Part shown: piece by piece, positions 50,701 through 59,700 of the stretch
Numbering within the stretch: position 1 is the first letter of the stretch
How the letters are laid out: the number at the start of each line of letters is the position of its first letter
Assembly: GCA_002633005.1 (NCBI GenBank)
Contig: NMRA01000524.1
Span: 126,381 to 190,380, forward strand
DNA length: 64,000 nt
From: Phoronis australis
Lineage: Eukaryota > Animalia > Phoronida
Direction of reading: 5' to 3'
The notes under the pieces: generated by a model
What the model saw: the letters and a program-made list of their open reading frames with translations, nothing else
What the model was told of the DNA's origin: nothing
Database searches by the model: none
Program-made: the position numbers and the translations under genes

Positions 50701-53700
50701 TAAAATTGAGAGAACTGTATGTCTTTCAGTAAGATTCCCACTTAAACATTTATTGCAACAAAATTTGGTTATATTGGTGATGTGTTTTTTTATGAAAGAA
50801 CTTTTCTTTTTCGTTAAATTACACTAAAAGACACTGTCCCGTGAAATCGATGGCAGACAAACATGAAGTCAAAATTAAAATTACGTTTTACTTTAAGAAA
50901 CTAGTATGTACTTTTACCGGTTATAGTTTTGTAGATGCACATCCTACATAACCTTCAGTTATTATCACTTGACTACTGGGGAAGCAATGAAATTTTGGAG
51001 GACCAAAATTAACTTTTGTGATGAAAATACCCCTTAGCAAGGTCAGTCAAGTTGATCCTGTGGCTGGAGCAATGAAGAGGGAGTTTGATTGAACCACTTC
51101 AGCTTGTGTAGTATACACAGCAAACAGCTTCAAGAAATATTTAGTCTGACCAATCAAGTGAAAAACCTCTGTTCTTAGTATTGAATGCCAGTATTGTACA
51201 TTGGGGAACTGACCAAGACATTCATAAACCAAAATCATTCCCTCAGTTCCTGACTGGACTGCAAGAAAGCTAATAAACAGTCGCCCATTTTAAGACCAGT
51301 CACCCAGAAATAACAGTATTCAATAAAGGCTATATCTAGACCATCACAAGGATATAATGGGGTGTTTGCAACAAATAACAATGACAATTTATGGTCCCAG
51401 AAGCATGTCTGACCTATATACAAGTAATAACCACCCCACAAACACACACACCTGAGCCACGTCAGCATTAAGATCAGATCAGCATTAAGCTCAGACGTGT
51501 CACTGTCAGTGTGCACAGAGAAGAAGATGGCAACAGCTGGCAAGATTGGTGTGGTGCTGATGGTGGTGGCAATGAGCCTGGGCATGGCGACAGCCTTCAA
51601 GATAGCTGCCTTCAATACACAGAGCTTTGGAGAAAAGAAAATGGAAGACCCGAGCATTTTGGGAGTCCTTGTTGAGGCAAGTAATGCCTAAATAATGCAG
51701 ATTTGTGCTGATAAGGAAGTAATGTATATGCAATGGGTGTTTTGAATGTAACATATGGCAGTTGAAAGAAAGTAATTTGATTGCCTGTTCCAACAAGCTC
51801 TGGTTCACACTCAGATGTATTAGGGGGCGATATGTCATTATACTCAGATGTATGATGGGACAAAATGTTATTATATTGCCCTTTATAGCTGCAGTGCAGG
51901 TGTCACCAGCCTATTACTCCTCATTGTTTTCAGCCTCCCACTAACTTCCATCATTAACACAGTCAATGTTCAGACGATGAGGGCTTCATAGGTTGAGAGT
52001 ATGAAGTAAGCCAGACATTTAATGATAAGTAGCACACTACAAAAATGACCAAATTTGGTTAACTTCATGATAACATATCTCAGAAATAACTGATCAGATT
52101 CTTAGAAACTTTCAGATAATATGTTAATGCACTATTCTCCAAAACAGTGTTGGAAATTGTTTTAAAATGTTCCACTTTTGGATGAAGGGCTATCAAATAT
52201 CTATAGGAGTTTCATGATTTTCAAGAAAAACTCTGAAATTGCATATGATATGAAAGCGAAATGATAATCGTAACAGGATTTTTGAGATCTCATCTTAAGC
52301 ATTTTCATCAAATACAATTTAATCATGATATTGATACTGTTGTTTTGCTACCTATATGCCTTTCTTTTAACTATATTTTATTAAAAGAAATCAAGGTCAA
52401 ATGACCCAATCAATGGCAGATTGGTAAAAATTAGAAAATAAAATTCTCTACTTTCAGAAAATAGAAACATTTACTTAGTAAGGTCCTACATGTAAACCAA
52501 GTATGCTATTATAGCTCAACAATTGCAATCACAGTAATTTGTCCATAAGTTTGGGAAAATTTTTACAAGTTTAAATGACCGTCTGGACAGAGATTATCTC
52601 TGGTCACAATCTTCAACACTTTCATTGCCTTAGTCATAAAGTCACCCCCCCCCCCCGATATGCTCAATCATTACAAACATGACTGTCATCAAATATGACG
52701 TAACTCCAAACATCAGACCAAAATTGTTATAACTGAAATATGAAAAGTGATCTTTCCAGGTGATACAACGTTATGACATCATCTTACTGCAAGAAATCAA
52801 AGATGTTACCGGGGAATTGCTGGGAGAGATCAGAGAAATGGTCAACCAGTAAGTGTTGCCAAACAATATCATGCACAAGCAATGTCTCGGGCTGAAACTC
52901 CGTGCTGCAACTCCTCGTATCGGCATAACCACAGACAGCAAGAATAAAACTGGGATCATGACAAAATAGCAATCAAACCTATGCCGATTTTCAGACTACT
53001 CCGTTCATCACAAGGATACTAAAAATATAAAGTAGAACAAAGCATTCCAGAGATTCAAACAGATTTGATCTTGATTTTGTCACAATCTTACTTTTATTCA
53101 TGCAGTCTATGGTTATGCTATACGGGGAATAGCTTTCACGCCTATCTGTGGCAGACAAGGCAATGATTTCTAACATTGTTGAAGCATTAGGACAAGCTGT
53201 ACAGAACTTTCAGAACAAATTCCACCATTCTACACTAAAAATTGATTTTGAACTAATAATTCTCAGTATAACTTCATCTGCATGTAGATCCTATATTTCA
53301 GGCAGACAGATGGCCGATATGGTATGCGAGTGTCCGAGGAACTTGGCAGATCCAAGTCAAAACAACGTTATGCGTTTTTCTTCAGGTAAATAAAAAGTTC
53401 TAACCACCAAATTTACAATTATTATTACTTACAATGTCATGCCAGGGTGAGTTTTAAAGTCACAGGATTGTTCACCTGACACATCATCACACAATCAAAA
53501 CGTTATAACAAAAACTGATAATCATACTTAAAGCAGTCCATCACAGCCACCCCTATAACAATTATTCAATGGGCCACATAATCTTGTCAAAAATAATGAA
53601 AACCTAGAAAAAGACTTGTAAAACTAAGTAATAACCAAAAAGGATTCCCAATTTAATTTCCAACAGATGTCTTTATTGAAACTAGATTAAGCGATGTTTA

Positions 53701-56700
53701 GCCAACATGACCTTGGGACATTCCGTTTTCACACAACGGGGAGTTTTAAATATCGCGATTTATTTTTGTGAGGACCTATAAATCGAGTCCTAAAACAAGA
53801 TAATTAAAGTTAACGCTTCCTTTTTATTTTCTATAGCGATACCGTTATTGGAATGGAGCTGACATGTGTGAGTAATGGCAGGTTAACAAACTACTCAATC
53901 AATCTTATTTCATCTTGTTTTCAAGATGGCCATTTTTCAAATGCCGAACAGTGCTCGATATTATTTTAAATGTTAGGTGGGACACTTCTAACTTGAATGT
54001 TTCGTTTCCAGGAAAGACAAAGGCGTAGAGATACCCGACACATATCAGTATGACGACGGTGAAGACAAAAGATGTCAGTTGATAAAGGAGGATGGGCAGA
54101 CGGAGAAGGTGTTGAAATGTTTCGACGCCTTCGAAAGGGAGCCATTTGCGGTCCGAGTCACCTCTACAGATACACGTAAGTCTCTAATGCCTACATGAGC
54201 ACTGGGTTGAGGAGACACGACCAAAAAATTGATAATGCCATGTATTTTTAGGGGTAATGCAAATTATATCGAAACTTCAGAGTGACAAAATATTTAAGCA
54301 GTAACTTTCGAAAAAATAACTGTTTTCCTAGCTGTACTGAAGTTATGTAGAAAATTGTGTAGAATATAATATGTATTGATGTATTAGTCAAATTCAGATT
54401 TTCAGTACAATTTATAAACTCATCAAGCCACCATGATAAATTTTCTGAGTAATGAGGATTTTGCTTACAAGAAAATACCGTGCGTTATCGCTCAAGGATA
54501 TTCTTCAAAGACTTGTCTCTACTAGTACATATAACCGCAGAGATAGAACTGGCAATCAACAGCAATATTTTCCACTAAACTTTAACATGCGCTTTGAAAC
54601 TGCTTTAAACCCATCACCGCTGTCAAAAGCCTAATTTCTGATTTGTACTGATGCTTACTAATAAAAACATTCAATTTGTTCCGTACTTTGACGAGACAGG
54701 ATTTTTGTACTCCAGAAGATCCTACAGTTCGGTATTACTTGAGAACATGCTCGATAATTTGGCGTCATTTAATGTGCCGAGAATGACTTCAAGTATTGAT
54801 GTCAGCAAGCAGTGAAGTTCTGTCTATGTCAAGAAATAACTCAACAAGACTAGGTTTACAGTAAACCAAATCAAAATGTAGTTTCTTCAACAAAAGGCAC
54901 AGGCTTTAGCACAACTTTAAAATTGTCAACATTGAAAATTAAGTGACCAATGTGAAACTCATTGCAGTGGTACACGAGTTTGCTCTCATCGCCTTACACA
55001 CAAGAGCAGACGACGTGATCAATGAGCTGAATCACATGCCACAGGTTGTGGACAGCGTCATGGAAGCATGGGGCGTGGAAAATGTCGTAATCCTGGGTGA
55101 CCTTAATGCCGGCTGCGACCATATCAAACCAGAAGACTGGTCAAAGGTCAAGCTGAGGAATGACCACACGTACACTTGGTTCATAGATGATGATGTTGAT
55201 ACAACAGTGAGCAACACCACCTCTTGTGCATATGACAGGTATGAAATACACTAATGGTAAATACTCTCACTCAAAAGTTGGGGGCAACCACTCTTCAAAG
55301 ATGATCGAGAGAACTTATTCTAAATTAATTGTCTCTCGACAAGTAGATAAAGCATGGGCCTAATTTGACATTTAATTTTTTTGCGGCTGCATTTTGTGCT
55401 GTTCAGCTAGCTAAAAACGAAAATTATTTAGGCCTTTAACTCTAATAAGATTGATCTCATAACATTCCTTTCCCTGACAGGACTCTATTTTTGTTACAAA
55501 CTAAAGTCACAAGCAATGCTGATTTCAAGTCAAAAGCGATAATGGATACCTTCGACATGGTTAAATTCACTATTTAAAGTTGGCCAACTCCAATAAACTC
55601 TGAAGCGTTTCCTCGAGTATTTAATGGTTTTAACATGGTAGCTGGAATGGAATGGAATTGTATCACTATAAGGAATATTATGAGACCCATTTCATGAGAG
55701 TAATGGGTTTAATTTGATTTGTCAAAATCCCAGTTTTTCAAAATTGTGAAGATGAACAGCAGACGACTCTTGTAGCAAAATGAGACATCGAAAATGTCTG
55801 ACCTGAAATACTAGCACTGCTGATTTTTGGCTTATTTTTTAAAAATGTAGCTTCATGCCTTGACTAACAATAAAAGCATTAGACTTAACAGTCATGGATC
55901 TAACAGGTTCATCGTGCGTGGTCACCAGTTCATGGAAGCCATCGTGCCACACAGTGCAAAAGTGTACGACTTTGTGGCTGACTACCAAATGGCCGAGACC
56001 GAAGAGAGTGAAACAAATGTAAGTCACGTGTTATATTATGCTTCAAAACATGAACACTTGACGTCTACTAGACATAAGTTTTCAGACAACATGACCCCGA
56101 ATTCCCCGTCACGACGACTGGGCGGAAAGTGAATTCATTGTCTGCCTCACAGCAGCTTTCCCCCAGGACCGAGAATGAAGGGGAATAACAGAAAGTTAGT
56201 AAGACGGATTAAATAATTCTGTAATTAGAATTTTGCAGCCTTAACAGTTACTACCAGTGTTAATTATTAATTGTTAATGGTAATTTTTGCTGTTCACAGA
56301 ATAAGCCGTCATGTTGCAGTAATTCATGGTTTGAGACAAAAATAGCTGTGTTTATGTCTTGGGCTATTCCACAATATCTGTCCTCTCAGTTACACACAAT
56401 AACACTTCACTTCGAGATTCACTTCCACTCAAATCTACTGATATGGTGACTGCCACAGCTTCACCATGAGGAGACGAAAAATTGCAGTCTACTAATAAAA
56501 TCGAATGAATGCTCTATTCCTTGATTTTTTCTTGTAATGGATGTGACAAATACCATGGAATCGTCCAAATGTAGTTGTTTTAAGGTATAGCATTGTTTTT
56601 ACTATTCCTCAGTACGAGAACGTCAGCGACCATTACCCCATACAAATATGTTTGAAAAAGGCAGACGGCACTATACCGGAGGAATCATGTAATGAAATGG

Positions 56701-59700
56701 CAGCGCCGATAGACGATCTTGAATTTGTGAAACAGGGTATGGATTCATACGGTGAAGGTCACGACAAAGAGACACCTGGTGAGAGTGAGATACCGGCCAA
56801 AGAAGAACTCTGAACTAATTAGCAAGATCTCCTGTGCCGTGTAGATAAATTAGAAAATATTCAAACATGATCCTTTTTACAAATGGTTTTTACCACATAA
56901 TACCATTACCATAAGCAGGGGCGGATCAATGATTTTATCAAAGATGGGTATACTCAATCAGACGTCTTTCCAGAAATTGTTTAGTAAGGGGGGGGGGGTA
57001 AATCTTTGAACCCCTCCCTCATAGATCAGCCACAGATAAGTCAGAGATCCCAAAGCGTTGATAACAGTACAGAAATGTTAACAACGGGATATGTAATATA
57101 TCCCGTTCTTAAATTGTGCAATTATTTCACCACAATTTAGTGTTGGACACCAGCATCAAGCAAGACAGAAATTCCATTAAGATTTAGTTACTGAACTGGG
57201 CTAAGTTTTATAAAGGTTGCAAGTCCAGTCATAGCTAAGATGGTCGTTATTGTAAACGCGACACTGCATTTTTCATAATGAGAGAAAAACATTATTTTCA
57301 ACTGCCGTTAAGAGGTGACCACCTCTGTCACACAAGACCAGATTGGCAACCTTTGATAAAACGAATCCCCTGATGTTCTCATGTGGGTCGACGAGTATGT
57401 ATGAAAATTGTGTACGACAAGAAAACTTTCAAGTTAAATAAAAATTCTTAACTGAATGGGTTTTTTTTTTCATGAAAACCTTATTAGCAGACAGCATGTA
57501 AACAGGAGATAATACAAAATCCAAACTGACAGACACCGAAGATGTAAGGTAAAATCTCACGAATTTCCCACAAAATAATTGCAAAAAATGTTGATCCTGG
57601 ATTTGGGGTCAAATATTTCAAATGTCACAGTAACTGACAAATGAATAAAGTTCTTTGACCCATTATTACAAATGACATCTCAGTTCCGATGCACTAAATG
57701 TAGTTATAAAATGCACATGGCATGGAGCAAAGTACCACTTTTTACCAACAATAAACATAGTACGAGGAAGACAGAATGACTTCTCACAAACTATATGGCT
57801 GCTTACAGCACACATTAGAAAAAGTAATCAAAAGTGTTCCCAAGGACCATCATGGCTAGTTATCCCAATGCCTCTGGTGGCGAACATCGCTTGCACCAAG
57901 CCATAACGACGGAATTTTGCCACGTTATTTTTGGAGCCAGTTTCATAAACCAACATACTGATGAGTGACAGCTGGTGAAATCACGTGAGATCACGTGCTT
58001 CACGTGTTTTCATGGTGATATCTCACGAACAATGCCTGATCTTGCCAAATGCGCAAGAAACAAGCCTTGTGGAACACAGCCCTGTACAGATGGAAGACGA
58101 TACATATCCACATCAAACTCACTTTTTAATCATATTCTTGGTATGCCAGACCGAGGGAAAGGCATCCTTGAGCACCGATTTGTAGTTCCTGTTCAGGTCA
58201 CGACCAGTCAACGAGCACCGGTAGTTGCCGACAATGACCCCGTCAGGGTTGAGCATGGGCACAATCTTGAACACGAACGTGTCACGGAGAAGCTGTAGAT
58301 AAGTGAGAAAAGCACTCAAAAATGATGTAAAGTTCCTTACAGACTTTGTATGAGAATGGGAAGATCAACAGTGAACACCTCATCACAAACATCTCCCTTA
58401 AAGGGATAATCCCTGCAGGAAAGCAATTTTACACGAATTAGCAGTAGCATGGGATCGCACTCCGCAAAAGCAGCCAAACGCTCTACCACCAAGCCAAATC
58501 CAACGCGTGAAATTGCAGAGTACATTGACGATATTTAAATGGTAGACACCAGGCTTGATTTCAGCAAATGTCAGAAAAAAAAAACAGTGAGAATTGGCGA
58601 TTTGTAATGATCACAAATGCACAATGGATGATATCCTAATTTTGTTATCCGAGTGTAAATAAAAAATCTGAGACGCATTTCCTTGAGCAATAAAATAACA
58701 GTTCATAAACAAAGTAACGTGCAGTTTAGATTTAGCAATTCACGTTCAACGTGAAAAACAACAATTTTTTAAAACAATAAGAGACAGTGTGATTATATAT
58801 GGCTGATGGTATTTAAGATTTTTCGGTAATCAAGGATTCCAAAAATATATACTTTTATGGCTTGAAAATGGACAGTTAAAAAGAAAATTTGATGAACCGA
58901 GAAAGGACACCACGAAAACTGACAATTACCTTAAACTATGCGATTTTGTCCATTCTACGTACTTTTCACATTTTCACATGTAGGCAAAGCATCATGCAGA
59001 GTAATCTGTTCTACACACATTTATGGTACAGTAAACTCTTACTATAATCTTGGACAAAAATAATTGCCAAAAACTTCCTTTCATTATCTTCCAAGGAATT
59101 AAAGCATTGTTGTAAATGCCCACAATTTTCAAAACATTTCTGGTGGTAGATGTTGCTCAAAACTAAAATGGAAAATAATATGACTTGATTACACGTACAG
59201 TAAAACTTCACTAGTCGGCCATATTGTGTCATACATTCATGAGATTTTACAAACTATAGAGTACACAGTTACGAACATTCCCTAACAGCAAACGCCAATA
59301 ATACCTTGGCATCAGCCGAGTTGCCATTCAAGTAGTCGATGAGCCCTTTCATCATCCAGCTGCTGTTTGTCTCCCCTGGGTGGACGCGTGCTGTCACCAC
59401 AACAGCTTTCTTATTCTGTCAAAAGATGGCACCACTTTAACTGGATCAGTGATTCAGTGGTTTGAAAGTTTAATAATGTTGCTCATTTCCTGACTATGGT
59501 CAAAGTTGTTTAATTTAGACATGAACAAATTTATACATTGATGCTTAAATTTAAGTACAAGTGTCCTCAATTTAAGTGCAAGTGTCCCCAATTCTGAGTT
59601 CACACAGGACTGTAATCGTTCATAATTATCCAATCCACATGCAAAAACATAGAATTTACAGCTGAAGCTAAAATCAATATTTGCTCGATTATTAAGTTAT

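Follow-up and report, generated by a model that had tools for sequence, protein, structure and literature searches.

DNase I-family proteins are viewed as secreted or surface enzymes, yet some of them act on nuclei within cells, and the route they take is unsettled. A gene in Phoronis australis raises the question of whether such a nuclease can be kept in the endoplasmic reticulum (ER). It lies on the + strand of a stretch of 64,000 nucleotides, hereafter the window (contig NMRA01000524.1 of assembly GCA_002633005.1, positions 126,381 to 190,380), and its product of 356 amino acids (aa) ends in the tetrapeptide KEEL. We find that this end is probably recognised by the KDEL receptor, which would return the protein to the ER, that its active site is unusual, and that KDEL-type ends recur in other branches of the family.

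A transcribed DNase I-family gene ending in KEEL

About 280 aa of the protein align with DNase I-family members at up to 47% identity, placing it within the family. Among solved chains, exon 5 hits human DNase I, DNASE1L3 (PDB 7kiu among the matches) and bovine DNase I, with E values of 5e-21 to 1e-19. The sequence combines a predicted leader, no transmembrane segment and a KDEL-type tetrapeptide at the extreme C-terminus, as expected of a retrieved lumenal protein. The N-terminal hydrophobic leader is a predicted signal peptide, called from hydropathy, an A-x-A site and alignment to the mature start of the family. Its 23 residues contain the most hydrophobic stretch of the protein (11-residue mean up to 2.68) and have A-x-A at their end, followed by the family's mature start, while the five most hydrophobic 19-residue segments all begin at residues 6-10.

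In a table of PMC12781119, KEEL is given as the retrieval sequence of five human proteins belonging to the family of protein disulfide isomerases (PDI), namely ERp72/PDIA4, ERp29, PDIA2, PDIA5 and PDILT, in line with an earlier statement about this locus that KEEL is a working retrieval variant in ERp72/PDIA4. The phoronid protein shares a signal peptide and a terminal KEEL with these ER residents, but they are folding factors and not nucleases, and the signal has been tested there, whereas here it is predicted. Upon shuffling the tail 1,000,000 times, ends of the form [KRHQSA][DENQ]EL, which we take to be a PROSITE-type retrieval pattern, were obtained in 0.07% of draws, EL in 0.75% and XX[DE][FLM] in 2.8%. 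With assumed priors of 0.5-5% and an assumed likelihood of 0.3, the chance of 0.07% gives a posterior of 0.68-0.96 for a true retrieval signal.

The gene has seven exons and six introns and runs from the ATG at 51527 to the TGA at 56811-56813, with an ATG-free stretch (51440-51526) directly upstream of the start codon. RNA evidence came from three stranded raw-read runs of one study (with about 18-19% of each run used) and from the contig set of a second study. All six exon joints are present in each of the three runs, and five of the six in the contig set. The reads per joint in the three runs were 30/40/154, 37/52/139 and 48/40/185 for joints 1 to 3, and 42/46/211 (two allelic rows summed), 71/43/140 and 68/45/176 for joints 4 to 6. 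First mates lie on the - strand across the exons, the expectation for + strand RNA in most stranded libraries. Intron 1 (51677-52759) is of the GC-AG type, and its GC donor is backed by RNA reads.

Close read alignment over 56560-56900 (thresholds of 85% likeness and 2% share) listed neither splice joints nor indels nor variants from 56779 to 56822, and the read depth across 56800-56811 was 39, 45 and 207 in the three runs, continuing into the 3' untranslated region (UTR). The joints and the depth over the stop codon bear out the spliced reading frame of the preliminary description through the last exon to KEEL and the stop, including its continuation of about 50 aa past the DNase I fold, which we measure as a tail of 52 aa. 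Splicing out ahead of KEEL within exon 7, which would have removed the motif, was checked at the donors 56737, 56779 and 56785, and none of them had detectable use. Readthrough of the stop past KEEL was rejected, as a second stop lies two codons downstream. The features of the gene are as follows, with DNase I residues numbered according to PMC2987838.

51527..51676, + strand: coding part of exon 1, with the start codon, the predicted signal peptide (51527-51595, aa 1-23) and the start of the fold with Asn7; the GC donor is next
52760..52848, + strand: exon 2, with the metal ligand Glu39 (E62, 52793-52795) and Lys at the Arg41 position
53302..53385, + strand: exon 3, with Gln at the Glu78 position (Q101, codon CAA at 53363-53365)
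54012..54175, + strand: exon 4, with the calcium-site II loop, an insertion of about 16 aa between C129 (54073) and C144 (54118), and conserved Arg111 and Glu112
54968..55238, + strand: exon 5, with conserved His134 (H173), Asp168, Asn170, the Cys173-Cys209 pair, Asp201, Thr203, Tyr211 and Asp212; further, His at the Tyr175 position and the sequon N245
55907..56018, + strand: exon 6, with the end of the fold and a 5-aa insertion ahead of the last motif
56613..56813, + strand: coding part of exon 7, with the sequon N293, Asp251-His252 (H297), C303, the acidic tail and the stop
56655..56810, + strand: acidic tail of 52 aa with C316; no relative was found for the tail
56799..56813, + strand: KEEL codons and TGA; no read variant listed
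56814..57456, + strand: 3' UTR, with AATAAA at 57437 and a poly(A) loose end at 57456

The coding sequence is under purifying selection and the gene is maintained: among 21 coding variant positions taken from the variant rows listed (104 further rows of the main alignment are not among them), 15 are synonymous and 6 non-synonymous, with a pN/pS of about 0.10. Four of the six non-synonymous variants fall in the leader or the tail. The tail beyond the last strand of the fold contains 15 D/E (29%), with an isoelectric point (pI) of 4.16, and the core is acidic as well (53 of 281 residues D/E, 19%; pI 4.66). The acidity that had been taken for a trait of calcium-binding ER residents is present, but it is only moderately above that of the core and is weak evidence for calcium buffering. 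The net charge of the whole protein is -8.2 per 100 aa, versus a median of -4.6, and 24 of 195 relatives are more acidic.

KDEL-type ends in other branches of the family

The preliminary description had known of no DNase I-family member with a KDEL-type signal, and this is contradicted by the vertebrate DNase1L1L group (the zebrafish Dnase1l1l group; PMC9208542). A search with a frog domain returned 1170 proteins, and among the best 120 (P0264-P0383) 104 end in EL and 106 match XX[DE][FLM], which according to passages of PMC8276033 was applied by Raykhel 2007, whereas just 30 match the narrower PROSITE-type pattern. The ends in these 120 include RHEL (33), RNEL (26), DREL (18) and QREL (12), along with HSEL, HHEL, NRDL and HQEF. 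The residues ahead of the motif vary by lineage while the last two are constant, and such changes as occur remain within the pattern (RDL, QEF); these rows are kin and not independent events. The tagged proteins come from sharks, ray-finned fishes, coelacanth, amphibians, squamates and platypus; zebrafish is absent from the named rows, and carp relatives end in RHEL. A hydrophobic leader is found in 104 of the 106 tagged proteins. Among the 14 that miss the pattern, 6 are without the final fold motif, 7 diverge just before the end in the manner of alternative gene models, and 1 has a hydrophobic tail like those that receive a glycosylphosphatidylinositol (GPI) anchor. Many rows are annotated "deoxyribonuclease I-like 1-like", and the seven sampled in our tree form a clade with support of 99/94.

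Mori et al. 2022 noted the conserved "EL" of vertebrate DNase1L1L and, in the passage concerned, saw no known functional motif in it (PMC9208542), and our literature search, with subscription journals outside its scope, found no publication in which a DNase I-family protein is said to carry a KDEL-type signal. The DNase1L1L end is likely an ER-retrieval signal that has apparently been overlooked, and this conserved tag is better supported than the case of the phoronid gene itself. The two proteins are alike in having a DNase I fold, a hydrophobic leader, a soluble form and a KDEL-type C-terminus; they differ in that DNase1L1L extends about 9-11 residues past the fold rather than 52, is near-neutral in charge, keeps Glu78 and is not orthologous to the phoronid protein. 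The recurrence and conservation of KDEL-type ends in other parts of the family makes ER retrieval plausible for the phoronid protein.

Outside DNase1L1L, EL ends were found in 4 of 192 complete relatives: RDEL in a brittle star, RVEL in a close relative, gastropod-group NSEL, and RFEL. NSDL is the end of the Babylonia protein, and NSEM that of a second protein in the cluster of the NSEL protein. P0054 (RDEI; another model in its cluster ends normally) and P0102 (HHDL; without the final motif) were left out of the tag count, and P0112 (YVDF) was not scored as EL. In the brittle-star group, P0184 and P0385 belong to one 90% cluster and end in RVEL versus a longer, helical-looking tail, and the paralogues P0067 and P0177 differ similarly, RDEL versus a longer tail. 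This pattern suggests an alternative last exon that may turn the tag on and off.

The nearest named relatives of the phoronid protein are nemertean, brachiopod, mollusc and hemichordate proteins, with a best catalytic-domain identity of 47% over 255 columns. When exon 5 was compared by words with longer proteins, 98 candidates came up, of which none scored; HMMER against 1.84 billion representatives gave at most 53% identity on exon 5 among the 150 of 987 matches listed; and a seven-exon profile search gave at most 43.6% to the whole protein among 113 further proteins (best 120 of 2879). Atlas searches with exon 5 and with exon 7 gave no useful match, and tblastn within the window revealed no second DNase gene. 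A scan of metagenome contigs returned a single distant locus of 31% identity, an intron-less, DNase I-like frame (L001, 2791-3702) with a Ser/Gly-rich tail. The invertebrate DNase1-like proteins (nemertean P0007, Lingula P0246, Haliotis P0033, hemichordate P0012), among which the phoronid protein falls, share 39-47% catalytic-domain identity with it. They differ in that they either stop with the fold or carry a hydrophobic GPI-like tail or a domain of about 150 aa after it, that few have KDEL-type ends (RDEL, RVEL, NSEL, NSDL, RFEL) and that nearly all keep Glu78.

We placed these ends on a tree (IQ-TREE, LG+G4) of 48 rows, comprising the phoronid protein and 47 proteins chosen by hand out of about 380 to cover the groups and tagged ends, in which the bootstrap was not fully settled. 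The phoronid protein joins nemertean P0007 with support of 92/93, lies in none of the starred groups and has a terminal branch of 0.63 versus a median of 0.32. By the approximately unbiased (AU) test on the same rows and model, a clade with vertebrate DNase1L1L is rejected (p 1.8e-5), and so is a clade with the brittle-star proteins (p 0.005). Judged from these topologies, the tag of the phoronid gene is independent in origin of the DNase1L1L and brittle-star tags. Orthology with DNase1L1L is rejected by the same test, and the terminal EL without a GPI signal that both share is likely convergent. The tag changes state at least seven times on the tree, which indicates either repeated gain or an old tag often lost, and the differing tails favour repeated gain.

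The domain of about 150 aa is found at the C-terminus of many invertebrate DNase1 proteins, from cnidarians to lancelets (27 rows, including P0007, P0033, P0021, P0014 and P0062). It has two conserved cysteines near its end and a confident alpha/beta fold in a model; it has no Pfam match, and a structure search with the whole protein gave no clear match to a known fold (best Z 5.1). The phoronid tail as a remnant of this domain was rejected, as a profile of the 27 domains had no match in the tail or in the window translated in six frames (best E 0.72).

Several observations weigh against the reading of the phoronid protein as an ER-retrieved nuclease. The excess of EL ends among its relatives is marginal: for a background of 0.5%, P is 0.016, and it becomes 0.07 if the two brittle-star proteins are taken as one. 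No close orthologue that could show conservation of KEEL emerged from the word, HMMER, profile and metagenome searches, and nemertean P0007 carries its separate 150-aa C-terminal domain and no tag. The tail tolerates change, with P345H and G346S, two of the six non-synonymous variants, lying within 8-9 residues ahead of the first residue of the motif. Since KEEL is described, in a passage of PMC7506106, as weaker and leakier than KDEL, partial secretion is expected. Finally, no substrate is known in the ER lumen.

The alternative that survives best is that this is an ordinary secreted, acidic DNase I-like protein that works outside the cell, with KEEL reached by drift and any retrieval incidental. 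The missing orthologue and the rarity of tags among invertebrate relatives speak for it, as does the acidity of the whole protein, which makes Glu-rich ends likelier, and the locus was chosen for its motif. Nevertheless, the motif is rare by chance even at the tail's own composition, it matches that of the five PDI-family proteins exactly, its codons are free of variants in four runs, and further branches of the family have conserved tags. On balance we regard drift as rather unlikely.

An altered active site

The active site was compared with 202 homologue domains, some near-identical rows and second domains included. The catalytic His134, His252 and Asp212 and the metal ligands Asn7, Glu39 and Asp168 are all in place, and Arg111, Asn170, Cys173, Asp201, Thr203, Cys209, Tyr211, Arg213 and Asp251 are kept as well, the Cys173-Cys209 pair corresponding to C212 and C249. 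The Glu78 position differs, being Gln in the phoronid protein and Glu in 198 of 199 homologue domains, and its codon at 53363-53365 has no variant among the read-variant rows listed (40 of 144). Substitutions of Glu78 strongly lower the activity of bovine DNase I. At two further positions the protein departs from its relatives: the Tyr175 position holds His, where 199 of 202 domains have Tyr or Phe, and the Arg41 position holds Lys, where 180 of 201 have Arg. According to passages of PMC7407206, Glu78 belongs to a set of four catalytic residues, and Arg41 and Tyr175 are among those important for activity, and part of PMC6832162 describes a hydrogen bond from Glu78 to His134. The change of Glu78 to Gln lowers the case for a fully active DNase I and not that for DNase I homology. 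With both histidines and the other checked ligands kept, Gln at Glu78 and His at Tyr175 make it likely that nuclease activity is weakened, not abolished. Two insertions, one of about 16 aa within the calcium-site II loop and one of 5 aa before the last motif, are private to this protein, and the tail cysteine C316 could pair with C303.

These changes raise a second alternative, in which the protein is held in the ER and its useful DNase activity is lost, so that it would bind DNA or another phosphoester without turnover or serve a non-DNA lumenal substrate. The three substitutions, the loss of a residue named as catalytic, the acidic surface, the private insertions, two putative extra cysteine pairs (C129-C144 and C303-C316) and the long terminal branch would all suit such a repurposed protein. 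We consider it unlikely, as a dead enzyme would have no need to preserve the two histidines, Asp212 and the remaining metal ligands that were checked, all of which are present. Furthermore, the equivalent position in CdtB, a distant relative, is not glutamate according to the same part of PMC6832162, so the fold can cleave without it. The evidence from the family is that the conserved, ER-tagged DNase1L1L group retains Glu78, in all 83 of the 83 rows caught by pattern and in most of the other 37 by eye.

A proposed storage in the ER and release onto DNA

The reading that we prefer, and to which we give an even chance as a whole and a better one for retrieval by itself, is that the phoronid gene encodes an ER-retrieved, leaky and attenuated nuclease, which a membrane would keep apart until breach or calcium depletion of the ER. 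The predicted leader would take the protein into the ER, and KEEL, judged by its motif, would allow capture by the KDEL receptor and return to the ER, with the 52-aa tail likely acting as a flexible spacer that exposes it. A store of a likely weakened nuclease would thus build up in the ER lumen, separated by a membrane from the genome. By analogy with DNase gamma and DNase1L1L, a breach of the ER or nuclear envelope in dying or remodelling cells could let it act on self DNA; alternatively, calcium depletion could cause the leaky retrieval to fail and the protein to be released. Release upon ER stress, which the preliminary description had proposed, would be a further possibility. Passages of PMC8276033 report that proteins with KDEL-type ends are able to exit the cell upon ER calcium depletion.

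Mammalian DNASE1L3 (DNase gamma) has the same fold, and passages of PMC3846476 locate it to the ER and the nuclear envelope and describe its entry into the nucleus when cells die; it differs in having a basic C-terminal peptide and no KDEL-type end, in also being secreted and in being fully active. As for DNase1L1L, sections of the review PMC13643694 state that denucleation of the zebrafish lens depends on Dnase1l1l and has finished by 72 hours post fertilization (hpf), and that, in work on Plaat1, clearance of the ER begins at 55-61 hpf. If the ER-storage reading holds for DNase1L1L, PLAAT-driven ER breakdown from 55-61 hpf would free the enzyme before denucleation is complete at 72 hpf, which would explain how an enzyme with a signal peptide clears lens nuclei.

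More broadly, a KDEL-type tag would be a simple route by which a nuclease is stored in the ER away from the genome and released when membranes fail, and it is likely that some enzymes that cut DNA are kept within cells and not secreted. We put forward, tentatively and with somewhat less than even confidence, that ER tags were added several times independently (in the phoronid gene, DNase1L1L, brittle stars and gastropods), forming an unrecognised class of ER-stored nucleases that rupture of the ER and nuclear envelope would release onto the chromatin of the same cell. With its unusual active site, the phoronid gene would be a likely example from the invertebrates.

The ER lies on the route of some viruses. 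A lumenal nuclease directed against viral or other foreign DNA on its way in, as the preliminary description had envisaged, agrees with the predicted location only and is highly improbable, as no evidence of an immune role or other support for action on lumenal viral DNA was found, the active-site changes point to lower activity, and the tagged relative that has been studied best has self DNA as its target in the lens (part of PMC13643694).

Two further features were observed in the window. Within intron 1, the short interval 52138-52197 attracts numerous reads of both strands whose loose ends are dissimilar, as would be expected of a dispersed repeat. Downstream of the DNase gene, 58122-58292 on the - strand is a zinc carboxypeptidase exon (Pfam Peptidase_M14, E 6.6e-7), whose motif is presumably of the cytosolic carboxypeptidase type.

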